Shown piece after piece: positions 3,001 through 25,934 of a DNA stretch of 64,000 bases. This DNA comes from Callorhinchus milii (lineage: Eukaryota). Each line of letters starts with the position of its first letter. Position 1 is the first letter of the stretch. The DNA is taken from the NCBI RefSeq assembly GCF_018977255.1, contig NW_024704743.1, positions 3,164,001 to 3,228,000 of the forward strand, given 5' to 3'. A program made the position numbers and the translations under genes. Under the pieces are notes generated by a model. It did not search any database. It saw only the letters and a list, made by a program, of their open reading frames with translations, and was not told where the DNA came from.

Positions 3001-4144
3001 CTCTCAGCTCGCCAAGCTACCCGCCCTGCAGCACCACAAGAGGCAAGCTCATACTCTAATAATATCATCATCCTCTCACTTGTTTTCAAATCCATCCCTT
3101 CGTGCCCTCGCACCTCCCTACCTCTCCGACCTGCTTACTCCCCGCTCCACCACCCGCTGCTCTGTCGGCTTTCTCCGGCCTCCTGCTTGTCCCTCGTCCC
3201 CTCCGCTCCACCATCGGTGGCCCTGCCTTCAGCCACTACGCCCCGAAGCTCTGGAACTCGCTCCCTCAATCCATCCGCCTTGCCTCCTGCCTCGCCACCT
3301 TCAAATCCCGCCTAAAGCCCTTCCTTTTTAATCGTACTTAGGGTCACCTCTCCCCCTCCTCCCTCTCCCCTGGCTTGTTGTCAGACTCCGCCGCTGTCAA
3401 GAGCTTCGGGATGCTACCCTGCGTGAAGGGCACTATATAGATAGTGGAGTCCGGTAGCTTAGCGCCTTGGGACGTCCTCCCGACGTGAAAGGCGCTCTAT
3501 AAATGAAATCTTGTTGTTGTTGTAGTGGTTAGAGCGCTCGTCTCACAAGCGAGAGTATTTGGGTTCGATTCCCGGGCGGGGTGAAACGTTGGGCAAGTTT
3601 CCTTACGCCACACGCTTTAGTCGATTGGCGGATTGCTATTCCGGGGGTAATAATCCCATGTTTTAAAAAAAAAGAGTTAAATAAGTAATAATAATTTGGT
3701 CACTCAATCCACGACTGTTTCTGGGACTCTGTTGTGTGCGATTGGCTGCCGCATTTCGCCCACAAAAGATAGTCAATTCACTTTACACTATATTCTCTGA
3801 AGCGCTTTGAGACGTCTCGAAGATGTGTGTGTGTGTGAGTGTGAGAGTGTGTAAGAGGCAGGGTGGTTCTGTGACATGTTTTTCCCTCCACCCACAGTAT
3901 CGCCGTCAGCAGTTTCCAGGGTTTCCAGCTGTCCAGGTGCCTGCAGCGGCCGGACCGGGTGCTACGTAGCGAGCAGTGGGAGAGCGCGGGTGCCCAGTGC
4001 CAGCCCACATCCTCGCCTGGCGCCAGCCAGCTGGTCCGGATGGCAGTGTGGGCACTGACTGCCACACTGGGCGCCGCTGCTATTGCCGTTGTCAATACCG
4101 CGGTGGAGTGGAGCCCGGAGTTCGTTCTGCAGCTATTTTCATGA
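1..4144 (+). CDS. TBC1D20: TBC1 domain family member 20(-like) Rab-GAP, 5'-truncated by the window; exons 1-179, 344-445, 1267-1408, 2858-3042, 3898-4144
   Basis: Spliced translation: ...[17 protein letters not shown]...[25 protein letters not shown]...[25 protein letters not shown]...[52 protein letters not shown].../SIAVSSF...QRPDRVLR...[36 protein letters not shown]. This matches TBC1D20, including the YYQG motif and the C-terminal TM anchor. Exon phases are consistent; the last intron is GC-AG. Ortholog versus paralog is unresolved. Confidence 0.93.
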
Positions 4145-10250: not shown

Positions 10251-11976
10251 CACCTGATTGAATGATGAAAATAATAATGTGGTCACTCAATCCACGACTG
10301 TTTGTGGGACACTGTTGTGCGCAATTGGCTGCCACGTTTCACCCACAAAAGATACAGTCGATTCGCTTTTCTGTGAGACGCTTTGAGACGTCTCGAATAT
10401 GTGATAAGGCGCGATATCAAATGCGAGGATTATTATTGATATGATTTCATATGCTGGCTTGTGCTGTTGACTCGTGATGCGCACACGGTCTGCACGCACG
10501 GTTTACACACGATTTGGGATAGAGTTTCACGTGGTTACACGCACGCACGTGGTTGACACTGGGGCCTGCCTCACGCCAGCACGCTCTTAAAACCTCTCGC
10601 TGCTCTGTGTTTATGCAGGGGAAGAGGAAGTGAACGTTATCGATTGTGCAAAATGGCCACGGTTCAGACATTGAGGGGCGTGGGGGAGGTTAAGCCAGTG
10701 TTCACAGGGTGGGGTTTGGGGTGGGGTGGGGTGGGGTGGGAGGGGGCATTATGACAGTACACATACCTGGTCCAAGTGAGGGGCCAATGAAGAGGCTTGA
10801 TAGAGCCCCCCTCCCCCTCACTTCCCCCTCCCCTCGCCCGAGTCACAACCGCTCGCGCATCACACCCGGATTGAGTGACAATCAATTGTCTCCTTTGGCC
10901 AATTCCAAGAATCAGCTTCAAGCCTTGAGAAGCAGCATGTCGCCTGCTCGCATGCTTCTCTCCTCTCCTCTGCTCTGCTGGACTGAGGTAACACTGCTCC
11001 CCCTCACCCCCTGCCCCTGGGCCGCCATCACTAATTGCTCACCGCAGTCTGGAGCTGTCTGAGCCCAGATTGTGGCCCAGTTGTTGGGATTCGCTTCCAG
11101 CGACAACTCCCCCTCTGGCTCGCAAACAGCTCTCTCACCGTTCGCAGAAACCCTAACTCCTTCAATCCCGGTTCTGGTGGGATAAATCGTGTGTCAGCCT
11201 GGCTCAGCGGTAGCGCTCTCGCCTCTGGGTCAGAAGGTTCAAGCCCCCACATTGGGGCTTGGAATCACGCTGTCCAGACTGACACTCCAGTGCGGTGCTG
11301 GGGGGTGTTGCATTGTCAGAGGTGCCGTCCTGCGGACGAGACGTTAAACCGAGGTCCCGTCTGCCTATTCAGCTGAACAGGGTCCAAGATGACATGTTTG
11401 CCAACGGAATATCAGAATTAAGCCCACCCCCTGTGAGGGGTCTCTAGTCCGGTTCCTGAGCCAGGAGGGTCCACAGTATTCCAGGGCACTCACTGCTGAT
11501 CACAGCGCAGCCCGGCCCTGGCTCATCGGCAGGACCTGTCACTGGGGGAAGGGAATCCTACCACTCAGCTCCTGTTATCCCTGCAAGCCAAAGCCCGAGC
11601 GGGTAGGGTGGTCCTAGCTGGACAAGCAGTGGGAAAGCTTGCTGGACAGTGCTTTCAATGGCAAGTTGGGCGGTCTTAGCTGGTTAGACTCAAGCAGTTA
11701 CCCCAACACACACTCTGAGGTCCCCCAAGCCTTGGCTCTTGCCAACCTGCGCCTAGTACTCTCTGGAATTAGTTAAGCAGGATGCGTCCAGAGAGAAAGA
11801 GCGTGCGCATTCCAGTCCCAACAACCTGTCTCTGGAATTTCCACGTGGAGGTGAGATGCATGGAAATCTCAGCTTGGTTTGGAGCATGGTGACGGGTTTC
11901 CGCGCGTGTTAGACACCCGGCTGACCAAAAAAAAAAAAATGAATGACAAAACGAATGAGTGGGAGGATTTCTTCGG

Positions 11977-11982
11977 TTTATT
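11977..11982 (-). terminator. PolyA signal (AATAAA) for the uncharacterised gene
   Basis: TTTATT on the + strand, about 530 nt downstream of the stop, followed on the minus strand by a U-rich tract. Confidence 0.5.
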
Positions 11983-12514
11983 TGGTGATTAATTACTGAA
12001 CAGGGCCCCTCCCCTCCCCTCGGTCCCACAGCCCTGCTCTCAGTCCAGCTTCAGCAATACACTCCTTCTGGGGGGGGGTGAGCGGTGGAATGGGGGGGGG
12101 TGGGGCGTGGGTGGGTGGCGGGGGTTGGAAGGGGGGCTTCTGATGGTCCTGGCCACATGTCCTCCAGATTCAATCAGTCATCGCTGCGTGAGGTACCTTG
12201 CTGTGTGTTTGCACACAGAGGAGTTTGCCTGCAAAATGCCAGTCTAGCCCCCCCCACCCCACCACCCCCACCCCACCCTCTCTATAACAGCAATTAGAAG
12301 AAACAGTTGGCAACTATGGAGCATGCACTGCTTTGAGGCCATGTTAACGCTGAGTACCTTCCTTCTTTCACCTGCGAGCTCTGGGAAGGCGGCCTTGTTC
12401 TGGGAGCGACTTCTTCAGTAAGATCTGGGAATGTTGTGGGAATGCCTTGTTGGCCGGCGGAGCTGGGATTTCCCGGGAAGCTGAGGCCCACCCATGGGGA
12501 GGAGGCGCTGGGGT

Positions 12515-14452
12515 TCACTGATTCCTGAACCCGTGCATGCGGGGGGTGATCTCTAACCTGCGGCCCTGGAGCACGAAGCCAGGATCCAGCCCCATGGGCT
12601 TGGGCTTGAAGTACATGCGAGGCCCCTGTAGATAGGGAAAGAGTTGTGTCATGGGACCCTGGAACCTGGGGACAGGCTGGCCCAAAGGTGGCATTGGAAG
12701 CTGGGGAGTTTGCCTGGCTCCAGGGGGACCATCTTGCGGCACCCTGACATAGTCGATCCCTTGCTTGAGGCCAGTGCTCACCATGTAATGCTGGACCCCG
12801 CGAGGGGACCTGCTTGGGAGATCTTGCCTCTGGCGTGTGGCATGAGGGAGGGCCAGCAAACAGCCGTGCAAGTGGTCCATCACTTGTTGTCTCTGGGAGA
12901 GCAGGTCCATCCCCGGGACGGGCCCCGCCCATGGCCCCGGCCCAGGCCCCACACCTCCAGGGACTGCCCCTGCCATGGGGGGGCTGGTCAGCCCCCGGCC
13001 CTGCACTGTCAGCACGCTGTCCATCCAGGTGCCCTGTAAACGTGGCGCCGTCTCTTTCCCTTGGGGCTGGGTGTTCTGGGTAGTCCCCAGCCAGTTGCCC
13101 TGGTATCCTGGTGAGGGCTCCATCCATTGGGCCTGTAGCCTGGGGCCCATGCTGGGGCCAGGGCCGGAGACAGGGGGCTGCTGTCCAGGGAAGGGGGGGG
13201 CATTGCCGGACACCAGCCCTGGGACCTTGGGGGCAGTGTAGACACGGCAGCCCCTGCCTTTGGGCATAAGCCCTATTGGCATGGCCAACATGTTGGCGCG
13301 GGAGTTGAGGATGATCCGTTGGCCCTGGATACCCAGCCCAGTGCGCAGGGGTGTGGGGTAGATCCTGGGCAGAGGGTAGAGTCCGCACACGTGCACAACC
13401 TGCTGGCCACCAGCTGCGGAATCTACTTGGACTTGTTGTTGGGTACTGGCTCGATCTTGTACAGCTGGAGTTGGGGTAAGGGGTCGATCTGCCCCACGGG
13501 AATCCTGGCCACTGGGCAGATCCTCTGCACCTCCATGCGGGAGCACGAGGGGATGTGGAGCCTGGGCAGAGGGGACAAGGGCTGAATCCTCGGGTAGTGT
13601 AACTCCGCCATCGGGTCGATCTTCCAGCTCTTCAGCTTGGGGTGTGGGTCGATCTTGATCTGGCTGGGGCTCCACTTGTCCTGGTTCTCCTCCTGCAGGC
13701 TGGACATCTTCTCCTCTCTCTTCTTGGCTGCCTCCCAGTTGAATCTCATCTCCATCTTGGCCTCCTCCAGACTGGGCCAAGTCCACAACATTGTCTCCTT
13801 CGAGCTGGGTGTCCCCTTTCTCCTCGGCCTCTCCAGACTGTGCGCCATCCTGTTGCTGTTCTCCTCCGTCTTCTGCAGGGTCTCGAGGTTCCCGGCTTCC
13901 GCTACTTTCTCCACCTTCCTCTCCTGTGGCCTGCTCGGGTTGCCCTTGGTCTTCCGCTCCTCCAGGCTGGTCTGTTTCTGGCTCAGCTGGTTCTGACTCA
14001 GCGGGTATGTGCAGGGACTGGGGTGGGGACTGGGGCTGGGGTTCTTCAGACTCTGCGCTGGTGTCACCTGGGATTTGGGGGGATTGGCTGTCGCCGGCCT
14101 GGGGGTCAGGGGAACGGGGAGGCTGGGCAGACGGTTGGTCTTCCTGACCCAGATTCCCTGAAGATGTGGAGGGTTCAGGATGTTCAGCATCTGGTCCGGG
14201 GGCCTGGAGCTGCTCCCCACCTGCAGGAGGCTGGGGTAGCTCGGAATCCACACCGTCCACGGCCGAGGCTGGATCTTCCATCCACGCTGGGTGGTGGGGT
14301 GACGTTGGCTGCCCAGGGTGAGGGTGAGGGTGGGGCACTTATTGGGCGTGCGGAGGTCCTAAAGTTCGGTGCTCGGCCTGGCTTCACATTGGCATGTGGA
14401 GGATTGGATGGAGGCCGACAGTCTACAGACCCTGAAGAGACTCACCTTCCAT
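12515..14452 (-). CDS. Putative uncharacterised two-exon gene, about 592 aa, low-complexity/disordered; exons 14452-14446 and 14286-12515
   Basis: Uninterrupted frame of about 1.8 kb with no SINE or LINE inside. gacATGG start, donor AAG|GTGAGT at 14445, and phase-matched acceptor ccacccag|CG at 14287, giving MEAWMEDPAS... AATAAA on the minus strand at 11982-11977. No recognised homolog. Confidence 0.65.
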
Positions 14453-14454
14453 GT

Positions 14455-14560
14455 CTAGCCCGCCCTACAATTTCCCGCTTACTGATTGGGCCCTGCTGGC
14501 CACCTGCCCCACCTTGTTTGTCAGGTCACAAATGTGCCCTTGGCCTGTGATTGGCCGGGC
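14455..14560 (-). promoter_or_regulatory. Putative promoter of the uncharacterised gene
   Basis: Minus-strand CCAAT boxes (14554-14550, 14489-14485), E2F-type GCGGGAAA (14478-14471), GC box GGGCGGG (about 14465-14459) and E-box CAGGTG (14506-14501), all directly upstream of the ATG at 14452. Confidence 0.45.
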
Positions 14561-17289
14561 TCCAGAGTAGCCGGATGGCAATAGCTTGCCCTGGCTCTCC
14601 TCCTGCAGGCTGGACATCTTCTTCTCTCTCTTCTTGGTGGCCTCCCAGTTGGAAGCCTTGCGGGTCACTGGCTCCGCCATCCAGCCGCTTGGCCTGCTCC
14701 CTGATGCCTCCACGTTGACCTGCCTGGCAACGGGCTGTTGGAATCAAGCCCTCTGCGGCGGTCCACAGGACTCCAGGGCACTGATGATGCCAGCGCAGGC
14801 AGCCCGGCCTGGCTCAGCGGCAGGACTTGGAAGGGCGGACCAGTCACTGGAGGGCAGGGAATCCTGCCGCTCGGCTCCTGTTAATCCTGCAAGCCAAAGC
14901 CCTAACAGGTAAGGTTAAGAATTACTGCTTGAAAGGGCGGTCGAAACAGATTCGGTAATAACTTTCCAAAGGGAATTCATTGGATAGGTACTTGAAAAGA
15001 AAAAAAACTCGCAAGGATACGGAGAAAGAGGGGCGGGGGGTGGGGGTGGGGGGGTGGGGGGGGGGTGGGGGAGTGGGACTGATTGGGTAGCTCTTCCAAA
15101 GAGCTGGCACGGGCACCGGGGCCGAATGGCTTCCTTTCTGTGCTGTAGTATTCTATTCTCCGATTCTGGTCCGTCATTTCGATGGTTGTGATAACCTGTG
15201 GGAATGTGTCCGTCTGTAAACCTGCTCAGCACCTCTCTCTACCTCTGTCCCCACCGCACTGAGTCCTCTACCTCTGTCCTCTCTCTACCCTTGTCTTTCT
15301 CTCCCCCCCTCCCCCCCTCTCTTTCTCCCCCAACCCCCGCATTTTCTCGCTGTTCTCTCATTATCTCCCCCTCTGTTCCCCCCTCCCCACCAGCACAGCA
15401 CTCCCCTCCACCCTAATAATAATAATAACCCTTGCACTTGACACGGCGCCCCATCTTCGAGACATCGCGAAGCTGAAATGACTGTAGATTTTTAGGGGCA
15501 GCCAATGCGACAGCCAATTGCGCGCAGCAGTGGCCCACCCGCGGTCATGGATTGCGTGACCGCATTATTTTGATTATTTTTTTTTTTTTGAAGGGATTGT
15601 CACTCCTGGAAAAGCAAACTGGCAACTGACTAACAACCGGGTTCCTACTTACCGCTGGGTAAGCGGAGACGTGTGGCGTAAGGAAACCTGCCCAACCTTT
15701 CGCCCTGCCCGGGACTCGAACCATGGTCCTCTTCGCTTGCGCTCTCTCGAATGCAAGGATGATTATTAATGTTATAACCTCGAGGTCCGCCGAAAAGGTC
15801 GGCGACCTGAAACGTTAACTCACGTTCCTCCCTCCGCAGATGCCGCCTGACCCGCCGAGCGCTCCCAGCGACGTCTGCGTCTATTTCAGATTTCCGGCGG
15901 TGTTTTGCCGTCCGATTGTTAATACGATCGCCGACGTCCCGAGAGGGAACTTTGCAAGGAGCGTTGCCTTTAAGAAAAAGGTCGCCCCCACCTTCGCCAC
16001 CTCCCCCCGCCCGCCCCCCCCCCCCGCCCCCCCCCATCTAATTGAAGACATGCCTCCTTTAGGAACCATTCATACCGTCCTCTCTGCTTCCCCGCATGCC
16101 TTATTCCCATCACCAGATCTGCCATTGGCTCTTTGTGCTGACGTGAATGGGGGAATGGCGGGGGGGGGGGGGGGTATGGGTGGGTGGGTGAGGGGGGGGG
16201 GACACACGACACACACACACACGCGTATAAATGTGGTTCAGCAACAATACAAAGGCAACAGGAATGTTGATGCTGTGTTTAGCCAGAGAGGGAGCGCCGC
16301 ACAAAGCCATGAGGGCGGGTAGGAGAGGGGAATACAGAGCATCATCTGGTCACCAGTATCCCGACACACTCACACACACACACACACACGCGCACACACT
16401 CTCTCTCTCTCTCTCTCACACGCACGCACGCACGCACACACGCACACTCGCACGCACGTATTGCCGCGCACACTCTCATCCGAACGCACACTTGCACACA
16501 GAGGCTCTCTCGCACGCGCGCTCACACGCACGTGCTCCCGCGCGCACTCTCGTTCGAACGCCCACTCACACACGCCCACTCACACACCCTCATACAAACG
16601 CACTCACACACGCAGACACGCACGCGCACACACAGTCGCACACACATTCTCACACCTACACTCTCACACACCCTCACCCACGCTCTCTCCACGACCGTTT
16701 GTGGGACGCTGCTGCGTGCAATCGGCCCCCGCGCCTCCCCACAACATAGACAGACAATTCGCTCTACGGTATACTCTGTGAAGCGCTCTGAGACGTCTCG
16801 AAGACGTGCTAACAACTTACCTTTATGTAGGCACCTCCCTACCTCTCTGAACTGCTTACCCCCCCACCCCCACCCCCCCAACCCTCAACTGGCTCCGGCC
16901 TCCTGCACGTCCTTTGTGTGCTCTGTGCCCCATTGGTGGCCGCGCTTTCAGTCACTACGTCCCGAGACACTTCCTCTGTCCCTCCGCCTGGCCCTCTCCT
17001 TCCCCCATCTTCAGGTTGCACCTGAAGACCTTCCCATCTGGTGGGTATAAATGACAGTGCATCCTTGCGAAGCCCTTTGAGGCGTCTCGGAGACACGATG
17101 AGGCGCTGTGCAAAATAACGATTAAAATAAACTGGTCACTGGTCACTTCAATCCACGACTGAGGCTGTGGGACGCCGCTGTGCGCAGTTGGCCGCCGCCT
17201 TTCGCTCACAAAATTCGCAGTCGATTCCCTTTACAGTATATTCCGCGCAGCACTTTGAGAACGTCTCAAAGACGCGATGAGGCACGATA

Positions 17290-17826
17290 TCAAGGATTAT
17301 TACTATTATATCGAACGCAAGGATTATTACTATTATTATATTGATTGCAAGGACTCTTACTAATATTATATTGATTGCAAGGACTCTTACTAAAATTATT
17401 ATTGAATTGAATGCAAGGATTATTATTAATATTATTATATTGACTGCAAGAATTATTACTAATATTATTATATTGACTGCAAGGATTATTACTAATATTA
17501 CATTGATTGCAAGGATTATTACTAATATTATTGTATCGAATGCAAAGACTCTTACTAATATTATTATTATATTGACTGCAGGGATTATTACTAATATTAT
17601 TATTGTATCGAATGCAAGGATCATCACTACTATTATTATTTTATTGATGGCAAGGATGAGTACTGATACTATTATTGTATTGATTGCAGGGATTAGTACT
17701 GATATCACTATTATATCGAAATGCAAGGATTAGTACTGCTGTTATTATTTTTTTGATGGCACGGATTTATTACTAATATTATTATTGACTCGAATGCAAG
17801 GATGATGATGATGATGATGATGATGT
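17290..17826. repeat. Minisatellite of about 30-36 bp derived from the SINE tail
   Basis: Unit ATTGA(T/C)TGCAAGGATTATTACTAATATTATT, continuing directly from a SINE 3' end. Confidence 0.85.
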
Positions 17827-18076: not shown

Positions 18077-18125
18077 AACACACATACACGCACACACACA
18101 CGCGCGCGCGCACACACACACACAC

Positions 18126-18164
<39 letters not shown>

Positions 18165-18199
18165 TACATACATACACAGCACAGAGCAAAGCGCGCACG

Positions 18200-18230
<31 letters not shown>

Positions 18231-18520
18231 AGGCAGAGCACGCGCACACACATACTCACACACACACACACAGCACAAGGCTAAGCACAGCACACACACA
18301 CACACAGAGCGCGCACACACTTAGCACACACGCACACACGCACGCACGCACACAGCACACACATACACACTGAGCACACTCACTCACTCACTCACTCACT
18401 CACACACACACACACACACAGAGCAAAGCACACACAGACACAGACACAGCACATACATACACATACATTGCGCGCACACACACACACACACACACCAGAC
18501 ACACACACACACACACACAG
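18077..18520. repeat. CA-rich compound microsatellite in the putative SCRT1 5'UTR
   Basis: (CA)n with CACT, CATA and CG interruptions between the TATA box and the ATG. Confidence 0.85.
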
Positions 18521-18538
18521 ACAAGGCGACTACAAAAC

Positions 18539-19541
18539 ATGCCTCGATCGTTCCTGGTGAAAAAAGTCAAACTGGATGACTATCCTTCCAACGCCATCGA
18601 ATTGGAGAATTCCTACAGCAGAGCAGCGCCTGACAGAGTGGCCAGTCTGACCTCCCGCCTGCACAGCACAGGTAGGTGTTGTTATACTGTATGTTGTACT
18701 GTATATGCACACACATCCACCATAAACACACACATACACCGCATACACACACATACACCAGATACACACACATACACCATATACACACGCATACACCATA
18801 AACACACACATACACCGCATACACACATACACCATAAACACACACATACACCAGATACCCACATTATACACGAGATACGCATATATAACCAGATACACAC
18901 ACACACACACATATATACACTAGATACACACAAACACCAGATACACACACATACACCAGATACATACACATACACCAGATACACACACATACACCAGATA
19001 CACACACATACACCAAATACACACACATACACCAGATACACACACATGCACCAGATACACACATACACCAGATACACACACATACACCAAATACACACAC
19101 ATACACCAGATACACACACATACACCAGATACACACACATATACCAGATACACACATACACCCGATACACACACATACACCAGATACACACATATACACC
19201 AGATACACACATACACTAGATACGCGCATATACACCGCATACACACACATACACCAGATACATACATATACACTAGATACACACACATACACTAAATACA
19301 CATACATACACTATATACACATATGCACTGTATATACACATATACACTATATACACACATATATACTATATAGAAATGCACCATGTATACATATATACTA
19401 GATTTACTTATACACTATATATACATATACACTATATATACATATACACTATATATGTATATATACATATATACATTATACACATCCATAGCCTGGCCTC
19501 TCACCTGCACAGCACAGGTAGGCTTTATCATACTGTGTGTG

Positions 19542-19572
<31 letters not shown>

Positions 19573-19803
19573 TAATATATGTATATATTGTATATATGTC
19601 ATTATAACAACAATAATAGCCACTGTGCACCGTTTTCCTGTGATTCCACTTTATTATTCTTGTTACTGCTTGTAATTATTTATGTAAATATATCATATAT
19701 GTATAGTATATAGAGTACGTATATATATATAGAGAGAGAGAGAGAAAAATATATTTGGAGAGACCGAGAGAAAAAAATGTATAGAGTGAGAGAGAGAAAT
19801 ATC

Positions 19804-19834
<31 letters not shown>

Positions 19835-22800
19835 CTATCTATATATATAAATAAATCAATGCCACAATCCATCCTGTTTGTTTCACAATTGCAGAAAGCG
19901 TTAAAATGCATATTTTATCCCGGTAAAATAAGAGGAAATCAGTGCATAATCTGCAAATAAAGACGGAGTAGAAATAGCATCTGCTTTCGGCCCTGCAGGA
20001 GCAGGGAACCAGCTTAACAGTGTGGCCAGGGAATGCTGTGTGTGTGTGCAAGCATTTTACGCAATGCGTTCAGATATTTTAACCCATTTTTTTTGTTGCA
20101 AATTTTCCTTTTAATTCATTCACTCTATATACACGCGCACACTGTATGTGTACACGCACAGCATATAGACACACGCAGCACATACGCACGCTGCACACAT
20201 GCACACTGTATACACACACATGGTATATGCACACACTGTACGCAGTGACACACACACACACACGCGTCATGTACACTGACACGCACACACTGTATATATA
20301 CACACATACACACACACTGTATATGCACACACTGTATACAGTAGCACACATACATACGCAATGTACGCTGACATACACACTGTATATACACGCACTGTAT
20401 ACGCACACACTGTATATACATACACTGTTTGCAGTGGCACACATGTACACTGTACATAGTCACACACACACACAGTAGTGTCCTGGAACTCAGTGTGTGC
20501 CTTACACAGTAATTAAAATGTGATCCCATCACAGAGACCCCCCCCCCCACACCCAGGTATTTTGTGCCCTAAACTGGGAGGTCAGGGTGACAGCTCTCTG
20601 TGTTACTGTCACTCCCCCCAACATAGCACTGTGGCTAAATATAGCAGCAGTTTGCTGACCGCGGAGAGCGTATAAATAGCAGGGAATGGTAAACAGCCAC
20701 TTGTGTGTGAGTGTGAGAGAGAGCCGGTGTGTGAGTGTGAGAGCCGGTGTGTGAGTGTGAGAGCCGGTGTGTGAGTGTGAGAGCCAGTGTGTGAGTGAGA
20801 GAGAACCGGTGTGTGAGAGAGAGCCGGTGTGTGAGTGTGAGAGCCGGTGTGTGAGTGTGAGAGCCAGTGTGTGAGTGAGAGAGAACCGGTGTGTGAGTGA
20901 GAGAGAACCGGTGTGTGAGTGTGAGAGAGCCGGTGTGTGAGTGTGAGAGCCGGTGTGTGAGTGTGAGAGCCGGTGTGTGAGTGTGAGAGCCAGTGTGTGA
21001 GTGAGAGAGAACCGGTGTGTGAGTGAGAGAGAGCCGGTGTGTGAGTGTGAGAGAGCCGGTGTGTGAGTGTGAGAGCCGGTGTGTGAGTTTGAGAGCCAGT
21101 GTGTGAGTGTGAGAGAGCCAGTGTGTGAGTGTGAGAGAACCAGTGTGTGAGTGTGAGAGCCTGTGTGTGAGTGTGAGAGCCAGTGTGTGAGTGTGAGAGC
21201 CAGTGTGTGAGTGTGAGAGAGCCAGTGTATGAGTGAGAGAGAGCCGGTGTGTGAGTGAGAGAGCCGGTGTGTGAGAGAGCCGGTGTATGAGTGAGAGAGA
21301 GCCGGTGTGTGAGTGTGAGAGAGCCGGTGTGAGTGCCAGTGTGTGAGTGTGAGAGAGCCAGTGTGTGAGTGTGAGAGAGCCGGTGTGTGAGTGTGAGTGC
21401 CAGTGTGTGAGTGAGAGAGAGCCGGTGTGTGAGTGTGAGAGAGCCGGTGAATGAGTGTGAGAGAGCCGGTGTGTGAGTGTGAGAGAGCCGGTGTGTGAGT
21501 GAGAGAGAGCCGGTGTATGAGAGAGCCGGTGTGTGAGTGTGAGAGCCAGTGTGTCAGTGTGAGAGAGCCGGTGTGTGAGTGAGAGAGAACCAGTGTGTGA
21601 GTGTGAGAGCCAGTGTTTGAGTGTGAGAGCCAGTGTGTGAGTGTGAGAGAGCCAGTGTGTGAGTGTGAGAGAGCCAGTGTGTGAGTGAGAGAGCCGGTGT
21701 GTGAGTGTGAGAGAGCCAGTGTGTGAGTGAGAGGGCCGGTGTGTGAGTGTGAGAGCCGGTGTGTGAGTGTGAGAGAGCCGGTGTGTGAGTGTGAGAGCCA
21801 GTGTGTGAGTGTGAGAGAGTCGGTGTGTGAGTGTGAGAGCCGGTGTGTGAGTGTGAGAGAGCTGGTGTGTGAGTGTGAGAGAGCCAGTGTGTGAGTGTGA
21901 GAGAGCCAGTGTGTGAGTGTGAGAGAGTCGGTGTGTGAGTGTGAGAGCAGGTGTGTGAGTGTGAGAGAGCTGGTGTGTGAGTGTGAGAGAGCTGGTGTGT
22001 GAGTGTCAGGGAACCAGTGTGTGAGTGTGAGAGAGTCGGTGTGTCAGTGTGTGAGAGCCGGTGTGTGAGTGTGAGAGCCGGTGTGTGAGTGTGAGAGCCA
22101 GTGTGTGAGTGTGAGAGAGTCGGTGTGTGAGTGTGAGAGAGCCGGTGTGTCAGTGTGTGAGAGCCGGTGTGTGAGTGTGAGAGCCGGTGTGTGAGTGTGA
22201 GAGAGCAGGTGTGTGAGTGTGAGAGCCGGTGTGTCAGTGTGAGAGAGCCGGTGTGTGAGTGTGAGAGAGCCGGTGTGTGAGTGTGAGAGCCGGTGTGTGA
22301 GTGTGAGAGCAGGTGTGTGAGTGTGAGAGCCGGTGTGTGAGTGTGAGAGCAGGTGTGTGAGTGTGAGAGCCGGTGTGTTGTTATGTGTGTATAAGAGAGA
22401 GACAGTGTGTGTGAGAGAAAGTGTAGTGTGTGTATGTGTGTGTGTGAGAGAGAGACAATGTGCGTGAGAGGGACCGTGTGTATGTGTGTGTGTGAGAGGG
22501 ACAGTGTATGTGTGCGTGTGAGAGGGACAGTGCTTGTGTGTGTGTGAGAGGGACAGTGTGTGTGTGTGTGTGAGAGAGAGAGACAGTGTGTGCGAGAGAA
22601 AGTGTAGTGTGTGTGTGTGCGCGTGTGTGAGGGAGAGACAACGTGTGTTTGTGTGGGATACACTGAGTCTGAGAACTTGGAGCTTTCTCACAGCCTTTCC
22701 CCCCCTCTCCCCCCCCCCCCACCCCTTTCTCCCTCTCTCTGCCACTCTTATCTGTCGCTCCTTCCTCCCTCTCTCTTCCCCCTCTCCACGTCCGCCCCCC

Positions 22801-24793
22801 CACTCTCCCTACCTCTCTTTATCTTTTTCCCCCTTTCTCTCTGCGGCTCTCAATCCCCTGTCTCCCCGCATCTCTCTACGCCCGCCCGCTCGCTCGCTCC
22901 CCGTCTCACGACCTCTCTTTCTCGTTCTCAAAGAAACGTAGACACAGGAATAGGGCCAATCAGCCCCTCAAGCCTGTTTGGCCATTTGATCAGATCACGG
23001 CTGATCTGTACCTCAACTCCAATTAATTGGCCTTAACTTTACGTCATCCGCACATTTGGATGTAAGACTCTCTATTCCTTCAACCAAGTCATTTATATAC
23101 ATATACACACACACACACACACACCCGCACATATATATATATATATATAGATATAATATAAATGGTGTAAAGCTGAGGCCCCAGTACAGACCCCCGGGAA
23201 CGCCACTTGTCACGTCCCGCCAATCGGAGAAAGTTCCTTTCATCCCTACGCTCCGTTTCCTGCCTCCCAATCAACTGCCAACCCACGTCGCAAGGTCACC
23301 TCCGATTCTAAGCGCTTTTATTATTGCTAATAACCTCTTGTGCGGAACCTTATCAAATGCCTTCTGAACGTCCGGGTAGACGACATCCATAGACACCTCA
23401 CTCATCCAGAGTCATCCCGCTCAGCTCCTGTCAGCCCAGCAAGCCAAAGCTCTAACGGGTAGGATGGTCCTAGCTGGACGAGCAGCGGGTTAAAGCTTGC
23501 CGGCAGCCATATCAATGGCAGGCTGTGTGTTTTTTGCTTTGCCCGAAAGGGCGGTGGAAGCCGATTCGATAGCAACTTTCAAGAGAGAAGTAGATAGATA
23601 TTTGGGGAGGACAAATTTGCAAGGCAATGGGGAGAGCGCGGGGGGAGTGGGACTAACCTGGACGGCTCTTTCAAAGAGCCAGCGGGCACACAATGGGCCG
23701 AATGGCCTCCTTCGGTGCTGTATAATTCTCTGATTCTATGATATGTCAGGCACCCGGCTGACCAAAGCCAACAGACCCTGCCTCCCAGCCGATTCCCAAG
23801 CCACGTTACGAGGCCACCTCCGATTCCGAGTGCTTTCCTTGTCGCTAATAACCTCTCGTGTGGAACCTGATCAAATGCCTTCTGGAAGTCCAGGTAGACC
23901 CCACCCATAGAGACCCGTCTCTCTTTAATCCGCCTCCTCAAAAAACTCTCTCTCTCCCAGGTTACATCAGTGACTACATCAGGCCGAGCAGTGTTTACGA
24001 GGATGGTGACACCGGCCTCCGGCTGGCCTCCCCGGAGCCCCTCTACGCGGCGGTGCCGGGGCGGGAGTGCTGCCGGCCGGAGCAGCCGGAGCAGCCGGAC
24101 AGCCCGCAGGCGGGGGCCGGCTACATCAACGGCGACGCCGCGGTGAGCGAGGGCTACAGCGTGGCTGCCTTCTTCATCACCGACGGCCGGTCCAGACGAA
24201 GGAGGAGGGGCGGGGCCGGGGGCGGAGGCGGAGGCGGAGGCGGGGCCGGGGCGGGGGCCGGGGGCGGGTCCGACGACGACGCGGGGCGAGGCCCCACCCA
24301 CCGGCACGCCTGCGGGGAGTGCGGTAAGACCTACGCCACCTCGTCCAACCTGAGCCGCCACAAGCAGACCCACCGCAGCCTGGACAGCAAGTTGGCCCGC
24401 AAGTGCCCGACCTGCGGCAAGGTCTACGTGTCCATGCCGGCCATGGCCATGCACCTGCTGACCCACGACCTGCGGCACAAGTGCGGGGCTTGCGGCAAGG
24501 CCTTCAGCCGGCCCTGGCTGCTGCAGGGCCACATGCGCTCGCACACCGGGGAGAAGCCCTTCGGCTGCGCCCACTGCGGCAAGGCCTTCGCCGACCGCTC
24601 CAACCTGCGGGCCCACATGCAGACGCACTCGGCCTTCAAGCACTTCAGCTGCAAGCGCTGCCACAAGACCTTCGCCCTCAAGTCCTACCTGAACAAGCAC
24701 TACGAGTCGGCCTGCTTCAAGGGGGGCCCCGGGGGCTCCCCCCCCGACACCACCGGCACCGCCAGCCCTGCACTCAACGCGGTGGAGGCCTGA
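18539..24793 (+). CDS. SCRT1: Transcriptional repressor scratch 1 (Snail superfamily); exons 18539-18671, 23961-24793; 321 aa
   Basis: SNAG domain [13 protein letters not shown]; phase-1 intron ACAG|gtaggt...cccag|[18 protein letters not shown] and Scratch domain [11 protein letters not shown]; five zinc fingers. The VKLD N-terminus, [13 protein letters not shown] and the neighbours TMEM249/SLC39A4/CPSF1 favour SCRT1 over SCRT2. Confidence 0.95.
18705..19480. repeat. Minisatellite of about 20 bp (TACACCAGATACACACACA) grading into TA-rich repeat
   Basis: Visible tandem units. Confidence 0.85.
20703..22378. repeat. Minisatellite of about 1.7 kb, 20-22 bp unit GAGCC(G/A)GTGTGTGAGTGTGA(GA)
   Basis: Roughly 80 tandem units in the SCRT1 intron. 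Confidence 0.92.
23040..23915 (-). mobile_element. CR1 LINE RT fragments in the SCRT1 intron, interrupted by other repeats
   Basis: Peptides [30 protein letters not shown] and [21 protein letters not shown]. Confidence 0.8.
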
Positions 24794-24819
24794 CCTGGCC
24801 TGACCACTCTCTCCTCATC

Positions 24820-24895
24820 TTCATTCATTCATTCATTCATTCATTCATTCATTCATTCATTCATTCATTCATTCATTCATTCATTCATTCATTCT
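24820..24895. repeat. (TTCA)n microsatellite
   Basis: Perfect tetranucleotide run just after the SCRT1 stop. Confidence 0.9.
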
Positions 24896-25934
24896 TCCAT
24901 CCTCATCGACTTCCTCCTCATCATCTTCGTCTCCCTCACTGCGGAGTCCTGAGGCTCAGTGGTTAGAGCGCGAGAGGACCTGGGTTCCATTCCCGGGGTT
25001 TACTCCGCACGCCTCTGTTTACTCAGGAGTAAACCCGGAAGCCGGTTGTTAGTCGATTGGCGGATCGCTTTTTCGAGGATAATAATCCCTTCAAAAAGAG
25101 AATTAACAAATTCGTCAGTCAGTCCTCGCCTGTTTGCTGTGCGTAATTGGCTGCCGCATTTCGCCCCCAAAATTCACTTTACAGTGTATCCCGTGAAGCG
25201 CTTTGAGACGTCTCGAAGACGCGAAAAGGCGCTGTATCGTATGCAAGGATTATTATTATTATTATTATTATTATCTCCTCAGCGTCTTCATCGCCCTCGT
25301 TTTCATCTCTCTCCACCTCCTCCTCCATCACCTTCATCTTCCCCTTCAAATTGCTCCTCACCTTCGTCGTCATTGCCCCTTTCCTCTTCCTCGTCCTCTA
25401 CCTTCAAGTCATACACCGAACCAGGAGAAACAAGACACAGATGTTGATTGCCACGTGTGATAGATAGCACATCGAAACTATTTTCTACAAGAGAGAATGG
25501 AAGAAATGTTCTGCTTGTGATTTTCGCATGAACTTTATACAGGAATAGATTTTAAACAAAAACTCCTCACTTTAAGCTGTAGAGACACTAAAACCCGGCA
25601 AACTCGTTCGCTGAAATTCAGCGAAGGAACTGAAGGTGTTTGTAAACCACCGAGAGGTCGAACCTTTTCTATCGGAGGACAATAGTAGTCTTGTCTACCC
25701 AACGATTGATCTGTGGCCCCCTTCTCTCTCACCTTTAAGGTAACATTGTGTGTAACAAAGTGATTTTTTTTTTAATGGAATTATTTATTGTTTGTTTTAT
25801 TGTTTTTTTTATTTATTTATCTGTTTGTTTATTGATTTATTTATTTATTTATTTATTGGATCCTATGCACAGTGCACTCTTTCTGAAGTACTGAGTTGCA
25901 TTTTATATCTTAGTATGGTTTGTTCCTCCCCAAA

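Follow-up and report, generated by a model that had tools for sequence, protein, structure and literature searches.

Which of its reading frames does a long open exon of the elephant shark (Callorhinchus milii) genome encode, and has it always encoded the same one? The exon lies on the minus strand, like all gene features described here, antisense to its two neighbors, a TBC-domain gene on one side and a Scratch-type zinc-finger gene on the other, in a 64 kb window (the whole stretch of DNA that was analyzed). The initial annotation had presented the locus as a simple one-frame orphan gene. The long coding exon (12515..14286, 1772 nt) is indeed open from end to end in one frame, termed frame A, which contains 589 codons followed by TGA and is built from approximately 54 degenerate 11-codon units. 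However, the coding signature of its 5' half is that of the +1 frame, termed frame B, a feature that the simple one-frame picture overlooks. Judged on sequence signals, the locus is very probably a real coding-like orphan; we put at about even chances the fuller interpretation that it is a genuine, unannotated gene in whose 5' half frame A was overprinted on the older frame B.

The coding signal of frame A was compared with chance expectation. Among shuffles and Markov copies, a frame of at least 589 codons arose in 0 of 2000 sequences at order 0 and again at order 1, in 22 of 2000 at order 2 and in 10 of 2000 at order 3. Three-base periodicity reached a chi2 of 135 in the 5' half, which was the highest in the window and exceeded that of the zinc-finger exon, and 40 in the 3' half, compared with a window median of 5.6. 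The G+C content of frame A at codon positions 1, 2 and 3 was 0.84, 0.52 and 0.46 in the 5' half and 0.67, 0.53 and 0.74 in the 3' half; the neighboring genes showed 0.62, 0.47 and 0.82. The 5' half (13415..14284) reads as an acidic, disordered segment with a net charge of -55 and contains no F, Y, C, W or stop codon in 286 codons. With the frame-B protein held fixed, 8.3 such codons were expected and the minimum was 1 in 5000 trials. C follows 17 of the 18 frame-B codons that end in T, and T follows the remaining one; frame A is thereby kept free of F, Y, C, W and stop. The observed-to-expected ratio of these codons was 0.76–1.11 in 30 control genes (of 30 G-protein-coupled receptor, GPCR, loci from the same genome, one, L084, had been removed by the frame filter before the controls were counted); including the gene's own 3' half, the range was 0.76–1.12, and the frame-A 5' half fell below all 30. 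These counts indicate that frame A is under selection at the protein level and has been purged of stops and of aromatic and cysteine codons.

Selection had been proposed in the initial annotation from the absence of dispersed repeats, and signs of it were indeed found. Positions 12279-14704 form the longest dispersed-repeat-free stretch in a window that is at least 55% masked (runner-up, 1332 nt), as judged with a mask derived from a partial library, and are interrupted only by a 67-nt self-copy. Polymorphism pointed the same way, with 0 variant letters in the frame and 5 where unique non-coding sequence was covered (approximately 1610 nt; P 0.02); we did not use this contrast because contigs drop variants and silent changes were likewise 0.

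Frame B (13423..14358) has 311 open codons and ends at TAG 13425-13423; its product would be basic (net +17 over 286 aa). Within the exon, the 864 nt of 14286-13423 are open in both frames. Not one stop interrupts frame B over 286 codons, whereas 2.0–4.3 were expected (P 0.004–0.047 under five nulls). Given frame B, the probability that frame A is also open was 0.0004–0.0006, to be read against control genes that show approximately 0.7–0.8 of the expected -1 stops. The codon usage of frame B in the 5' half is that of a coding frame, with G+C at third codon positions (GC3) of 0.76–0.92 and an NAA:NAG ratio of 5:60. The synonymous-codon score of the 5' half was +80 bits for frame B and -118 bits for frame A after training on the neighboring genes (652 codons), and the per-codon score was 0.26 versus -0.25 after training on 17 GC3-rich GPCR genes of the same genome. 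The latter classifier was correct for 17 of 17 genes in leave-one-out tests and for 27 of 29 with all genes. Synonymous choice favors frame B in the 5' half and frame A in the 3' half. In addition, glycine is encoded by GGA at 20 of 37 codons of the 5' half versus 5 of 41 of the 3' half (P 9e-5), and simulations with selection on frame A alone reached the observed gap between the two frames in 0 of 1500 runs under each of two codon models. From these signatures, frame B is probably the older coding frame.

The best-scoring frame switches from B to A within 13390..13411, at 13402 (13411-13393) by neighbor training or at 13396 (13405-13390) by GPCR training, approximately 25 nt beyond the frame-B stop. 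The switch is not an assembly slip, because its sequence is identical in both assembly copies of the locus and contigs from two sequencing runs (X1 and X3) span it gap-free. No slippery heptamer for a programmed -1 ribosomal frameshift was found in 13560-13340. At its other end, the frame-B bias continues into the proposed intron, with a GC3 of 0.88 over 14359-14287.

Conservation within the repeat array changes frame as well. A cyclic 11-codon profile fits both halves with few indels (approximately 27 units each) and outscored 100 of 100 codon shuffles in each half; nothing was found at 11 in the Scratch zinc-finger exon, and no 33-nt period was found in the flanks. Among unit lengths of 7–16, only 11 outscored the shuffles in the 5' half, and 9 also scored in the 3' half (8 shuffles). 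Amino-acid autocorrelation in the 3' half peaked at lag 11 (z 5.0; 95% limit for the best lag, 3.17) and was also raised at lag 22. Repeat similarity peaks at codon position 2 of frame B in the 5' half (z 5.9) and of frame A in the 3' half (z 4.8). Between-unit identity at synonymous and replacement sites of the 5' half was 0.151 and 0.092 in frame A and 0.073 and 0.116 in frame B. Eight successive units in frame B read K/R/H/Q-I-D/Q/P/C/E-P/S with silent variation, and the ninth has TAG in place of the Lys codon. One DNA self-match spans the switch at an offset of 197, i.e., 6x33-1. A motif common to the 5' units in frame B and the 3' units in frame A gave 6 and 5 matches versus 0.3 expected and 0–1 in the other four frames, as a post hoc comparison.

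A young 33-bp minisatellite was observed elsewhere in the genome (L102, G000:C246:55258-58473) with 97 copies at 89% match and open frames of up to 865 codons, and weak relatives of it occur on contigs C761, C251 and C215. An origin of the array from this minisatellite is unproven; both strands of the unit score alike (P 0.007–0.14), and it was chosen via a hit.

We propose the following order of events for the favored interpretation. The gene would have expanded as 33-nt units were copied in tandem, and frame B would long have been the frame read in the 5' half, as the codon signatures suggest. A net loss of 1 nt near 13400 would then have made the 3' repeat region continuous with the 5' half as read in its -1 frame. 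Frame A may subsequently have been cleared of stops and of aromatic and cysteine codons and have gained its own start, at ATG 14452 via a mini-exon or at ATG 14281; it would be the frame under selection now.

Next to be considered is how such a product could be started. The initial annotation had placed on the minus strand a promoter-like cluster, ATG 14452 in a 7-nt exon, its donor, a 159-nt intron and an in-phase 1772-nt exon encoding 592 aa, and we found each of these at its position. The cluster (14459..14556) contains CCAAT at 14554 and 14489, an E2F-type GCGGGAAA at 14478-14471 and a GC-box GGGCGGG at 14465-14459; three further CCAAT lie at 14407, 14392 and 14345. Its observed-to-expected CpG ratio (CpG o/e) is 0.39, and it is therefore not a CpG island. 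A CpG-rich patch at 15770-15985 was ruled out as an upstream promoter, being a dispersed repeat. The start reads ctagacATGG at 14452, and the candidate first coding exon (14446..14452, ATG GAA G) ends in the consensus donor GAAG|GTGAGT, with the first intron base at 14445; on the minus strand of the window, perfect MAG|GTRAGT donors occur twice, as does GCGGGAAA. The GC box ends 7 nt ahead of ATG 14452, which leaves scant room for a 5' untranslated region. The candidate intron (14287..14445, GT..AG) ends at 14287, in phase with the long exon and its single terminal stop. Its acceptor has 1 T among the 21 preceding bases because the codon bias of frame B extends into the proposed intron; an alternative acceptor lies at 14309.

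All six ATGs within 14920-14270 fall in frame A coordinates. Unspliced, ATG 14452 opens a frame of 9 codons only, and the in-frame ATG within exon 2 (14279..14281), which the initial annotation had overlooked together with the 311-codon second frame, gives 588 aa. An upstream frame of 71 codons from ATG 14680 (14465..14680) has a possible donor at 14482; splicing to 14287 would yield 353 aa of frame B and splicing to 14309 would yield 663 aa of frame A. Depending on the splice choice, the product would have 592 or 663 aa in frame A, 353 aa in frame B, or 43 aa; frame B from ATG 14190 would give 255 aa.

Twelve sequencing runs were checked, of which six contain part of the stretch; none is on record as RNA, and X1 and X2 are RNA by guess only. 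The six runs with next to no sequence of the stretch are not proof of absence. X1 gave a single 2513-nt contig (12306-14818) that is gap-free over the motif cluster as well as the two proposed splice sites; X2 covers 13620-13898. X1 lacks cover at the unique flanks 10822-11218 and 15680-15952, which are covered in X3 and X5; neither this nor the smaller size of X1 was used as evidence. The contigs carry no information on strand, start site or level, and the junctions listed, 15 of 242, all came from flanking repeats. Assembly simplification can lose minor paths (PMC12424806), and a minor spliced form may thus have escaped the contigs. Splicing is therefore neither confirmed nor excluded: the sites of the 14446-14286 junction are in place, whereas the only contig that bridges them is unspliced and the acceptor lies in frame-B-biased sequence. 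We regard the mini-exon from 14452 as a possible main form, somewhat short of probable. At the 3' end, the AATAAA of the initial annotation (11977..11982) stands 533 nt downstream of the frame-A stop as the sole AATAAA between 11900 and 15000 on this strand; the T-run 11939-11927 beyond it adjoins a dispersed repeat at approximately 11693-11937 and may be the A-tail of a retroposon on the other strand.

Searches for relatives agreed with the initial view of an orphan without known family or transposon match. Frame A had no match at E 0.001 among 1.84 billion representatives and none in Pfam, NCBIfam, PDB or IMG/VR, and its residues 285-589 had no relatives among 2074 near, 395 shorter and 1227 longer candidates in three length classes. 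Frame B gave no useful-score match in Pfam, NCBIfam, PDB, IMG/VR, its own genome or exact look-ups, the large protein libraries not being searched with it. Exact look-ups (4 + 7, one of them the zinc-finger exon alone) found no sequence present in RefSeq/UniRef-derived collections. As a positive control, 5 of 6 GPCR frames from the same genome were exact Callorhinchus milii RefSeq/UniRef matches, indicating that the collection includes the annotated proteins of this species. The gene is missing from the current annotation, and by the absence of a detectable homolog its frame-A protein would count as an orphan. An Rfam scan of 10400-16300 gave 0 matches, and no literature on the locus was found within a coverage that leaves out most subscription journals.

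In its own genome, the only full match was a collinear contig (G000:C70; L002, L050-L054) that, in the pieces fetched, repeats at least window 1-45965 in reverse at 95–99.9% identity with mostly homopolymer differences. This contig is likely a haplotype duplicate in the assembly; collinearity rules it out as a paralog. It carries an extra G at approximately 13900 that would merge frames B and A into a single frame of 614 codons. The extra G is absent from the bridging contigs of X1, X3 and X5 and is most likely an assembly error. Weak matches elsewhere in the genome (E 0.08 and worse, with stops) were rejected.

Several results weigh against the overprinting interpretation. Simulation with selection on frame A alone and neutral third positions yields 0.32 of the 0.53 gap in codon score, and the frame-B score is partly confounded because an acidic, Pro/Gln-rich protein forces high G/C at frame-A position 1. 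In the 3' half, between-unit identity in frame A is ambiguous (0.088 synonymous, 0.090 replacement), and the -1 frame is also open (P 0.004) with an amino-acid selection ratio of 1.12, i.e., no sign of selection. Common descent of the 5' frame-B and 3' frame-A units gained no support from protein alignment (P 0.20) or profile column order (P 0.13–0.66); cross-scoring of the units was not frame-specific, and DNA diagonal offsets were 28 of 60 for B-A versus 24 of 60 for A-A. Two neighboring repeat regions with separate origins fit equally well. The hydrophobic-Gln-Gly motif was equaled by 74 of 300 shuffles after correction for all patterns tried. The X1 contig, the only one bridging both splice sites, is unspliced and extends 260 nt beyond the first CCAAT. 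Finally, all evidence comes from one genome, which offers no ortholog to polarize the history or to give a ratio of nonsynonymous to synonymous substitution rates.

The part of the gap that neutral third positions yield would also fit an ordinary one-frame orphan, in which amino-acid composition, CpG decay and repeat history would together have left the frame-B signature as a by-product; frame A alone is open end to end and purged, and the perfect donor has an in-phase acceptor. We consider this improbable, as third-position usage is sharply unlike between the two halves of a single exon, the bias flips within approximately 20 nt beside the frame-B stop and persists upstream into the proposed intron, and no simulation reached the full gap. 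About as improbable is a decaying or never-translated relic, either a repeat gene inactivated by a frameshift or a GC-rich minisatellite remnant open through composition. Stop triplets on the minus strand number only 19 over 1824 nt, Markov copies of orders 2 and 3 attain the length in 0.5–1%, the protein is not in RefSeq/UniRef-derived collections, the young 33-bp minisatellite has long open frames in several phases, and the second assembly copy bears a frameshift. However, among units only approximately 40% alike, unselected frames have accumulated 8–10 stops, the purge of frame A surpasses all 30 controls, 2.4 kb are without a retroposon, and the extra base that shifts the frame of the second copy is missing from the contigs of X1, X3 and X5.

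The strongest competitor, albeit an unlikely one, is dual coding today, in which the same exon would yield an acidic frame-A protein (588–663 aa) and a basic frame-B protein (353 or 255 aa) that may bind by opposite charge. The 864-nt overlap exceeds the 500-bp level reported as rare by chance by Chung et al. (PMC1868773), who also caution that low complexity generates long alternative frames. The upstream frame from ATG 14680 would enter frame B in the correct phase via the donor at 14482 and contains a 67-nt copy (14585..14651) of 13741-13675 at 93% identity, which it reads as frame B reads the original. AlphaFold predicted one confident helix in frame B (residues 172-201), and the copy, 910 nt upstream of the original and just before the CCAAT boxes, matches this one predicted helix. 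On the other side, the donor at 14482 is weaker (TCA|GTAAGC), outside the copied part the upstream frame reaches only a marginal codon score (P 0.056), 4 replacement changes and 1 silent change separate the copy from the original in frame B, and the frame-B stop occupies a Lys position of the repeat register, as with a later nonsense change. The overlap reaches the levels of Chung et al. for length (864 nt) and, by single-sequence analogues, for codon replacement (<=5%); we do not class the locus as a dual-coding gene. Least probable is that the gene belongs to a known family and evolves fast, or that it is a transposon or viral frame that was domesticated. Low-complexity proteins quickly lose detectable similarity, and the large libraries were searched with frame A and not with frame B; yet the searches of both frames described above were empty, and the locus is single apart from its duplicate contig, lacks an element domain, and is CpG-depleted like long-resident DNA (CpG o/e 0.35).

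In the favored interpretation, the frame-A product of approximately 590 aa would be disordered and intracellular, acidic in its first half and basic, aromatic and repeat-bearing in its second. Neither a signal peptide nor a membrane segment was predicted (maximum hydropathy 0.76), and 63% of its sliding windows fell under the FoldIndex line. Net charge runs from -55 in the 5' half to +18 in the 3' half and aromatics from 0 to 18; the charge decoration was -4.7 compared with 13.9 +/- 1.1 for shuffled sequences. The 3' half (12515..13414) is Pro/Gly/Gln-rich and contains 7 hydrophobic-Gln-Gly motifs mostly spaced 11 or 22 residues apart; its AlphaFold model, built with no alignment, was coil (mean predicted local distance difference test score, pLDDT, 41). 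Amphipathic 11-mer helical repeats are known from proteins of the synuclein, LEA3 and perilipin type. The units here do not resemble helix-forming 11-mers, as they contain 15% Pro, single-sequence models of the two products were mostly coil (pLDDT 41 and 53), and there was no Pfam match. A full RHIM motif was also absent, with a single IQLG tetrad lacking the flanking pattern and no Pfam match at E 1. A likeness of the Gln-Gly motifs to viral 3C-type protease sites was set aside; the 6 found versus 1.5 expected (uncorrected P 0.0045) were a post hoc count.

Disordered multivalent proteins can act as scaffolds. We tentatively suggest, as the likeliest mechanism but one with clearly less than even odds, that the frame-A protein is a multivalent scaffold of the condensate or chaperone type that self-associates via its charge blocks and hydrophobic-Gln-Gly stickers and buffers basic partners such as histones or RNA-binding proteins. 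Its acidic block would engage either these partners or the C-terminal block of the protein itself, with the spaced hydrophobic-Gln-Gly units serving as stickers. Expression in germ cells is a guess based on the CCAAT/E2F motifs and on the usual expression sites of orphan genes. The frame-B product, if made, would be basic with one long helix and a natural charge partner of the frame-A product. It is conceivable, though improbable, that the gene is mid-swap of its reading frames over approximately 290 codons, the acidic half having replaced a basic N-terminal half and the old basic product still being made via the alternative first-exon donor as a charge-complementary partner.

The locus can be compared with known systems. 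It shares with charge-blocked orphans and condensate scaffolds (VCX-type and Ddx4-type N-termini) disorder, split charges, short degenerate repeats, and aromatic and Arg stickers; the likeness is one of composition, with no sequence similarity. As in CDKN2A INK4a/ARF, alternative first exons could feed a shared exon in different frames (14452 to A and 14680 to B at 14287); unlike in that system, 37 nt separate the two donors and spliced forms were not seen, and the arrangement is known from a single genome. Like GNAS XLalphas/ALEX as described in PMC1868773, it has a long exon open in two same-strand frames, the second being +1, with unrelated products and fast sequence turnover. Unlike GNAS, to which it has no sequence similarity, its 3' half lacks a known domain, its longer frame looks younger, and both products are predicted. 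In the compensatory frameshift pairs of Biba et al. 2022 (PMC8935012), a segment is likewise re-read in a shifted frame while the gene stays intact. However, the five of its six high-confidence cases considered here span 7–99 nt, whereas approximately 860 nt would be affected in this exon, about nine times the longest of those five, and the upstream compensation here would be a new start or splice site rather than a second indel.

The surroundings were also described. RabGAP-TBC exons lie upstream, 23852-24793 encodes C2H2 zinc fingers, and an exon of a ZIP transporter is located at approximately 49800; these genes would correspond to TBC1D20, SCRT1 and SLC39A4. Same-orientation copies of one dispersed repeat family stand on both flanks of the gene (11546-11609 and 14852-14915). 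A third frame (12294-13631, minus strand) has 445 open codons across the 3' half and 220 nt past the frame-A stop, with no sign of amino-acid selection. The zinc-finger exon 24328-24966 (plus strand) has a -1 frame open for 212 codons, as expected from a GC3-rich exon. An intron of the TBC-domain gene (approximately 3042-3897, plus strand) is apparently GC-AG and starts AG|GCAAGC. Approximately 700 nt upstream of the first coding exon of the zinc-finger gene, an AT-rich tandem array of 30-36-bp units (17291-17803) is built from the tail motif of a common dispersed repeat, and kilobases of CA-type micro- and minisatellites (18078-22619) lie around and within the first intron of that gene.

Few vertebrate genes are known to contain long overlaps between frames of the same strand. 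Searches for orphans that take the longest frame can overlook an older frame beneath it. If orthologs confirm the overprinting interpretation, this locus would offer, in a slowly evolving lineage, a case in which the birth of a 290-residue protein region by overprinting can be tested directly, with the signature of the old frame still readable.

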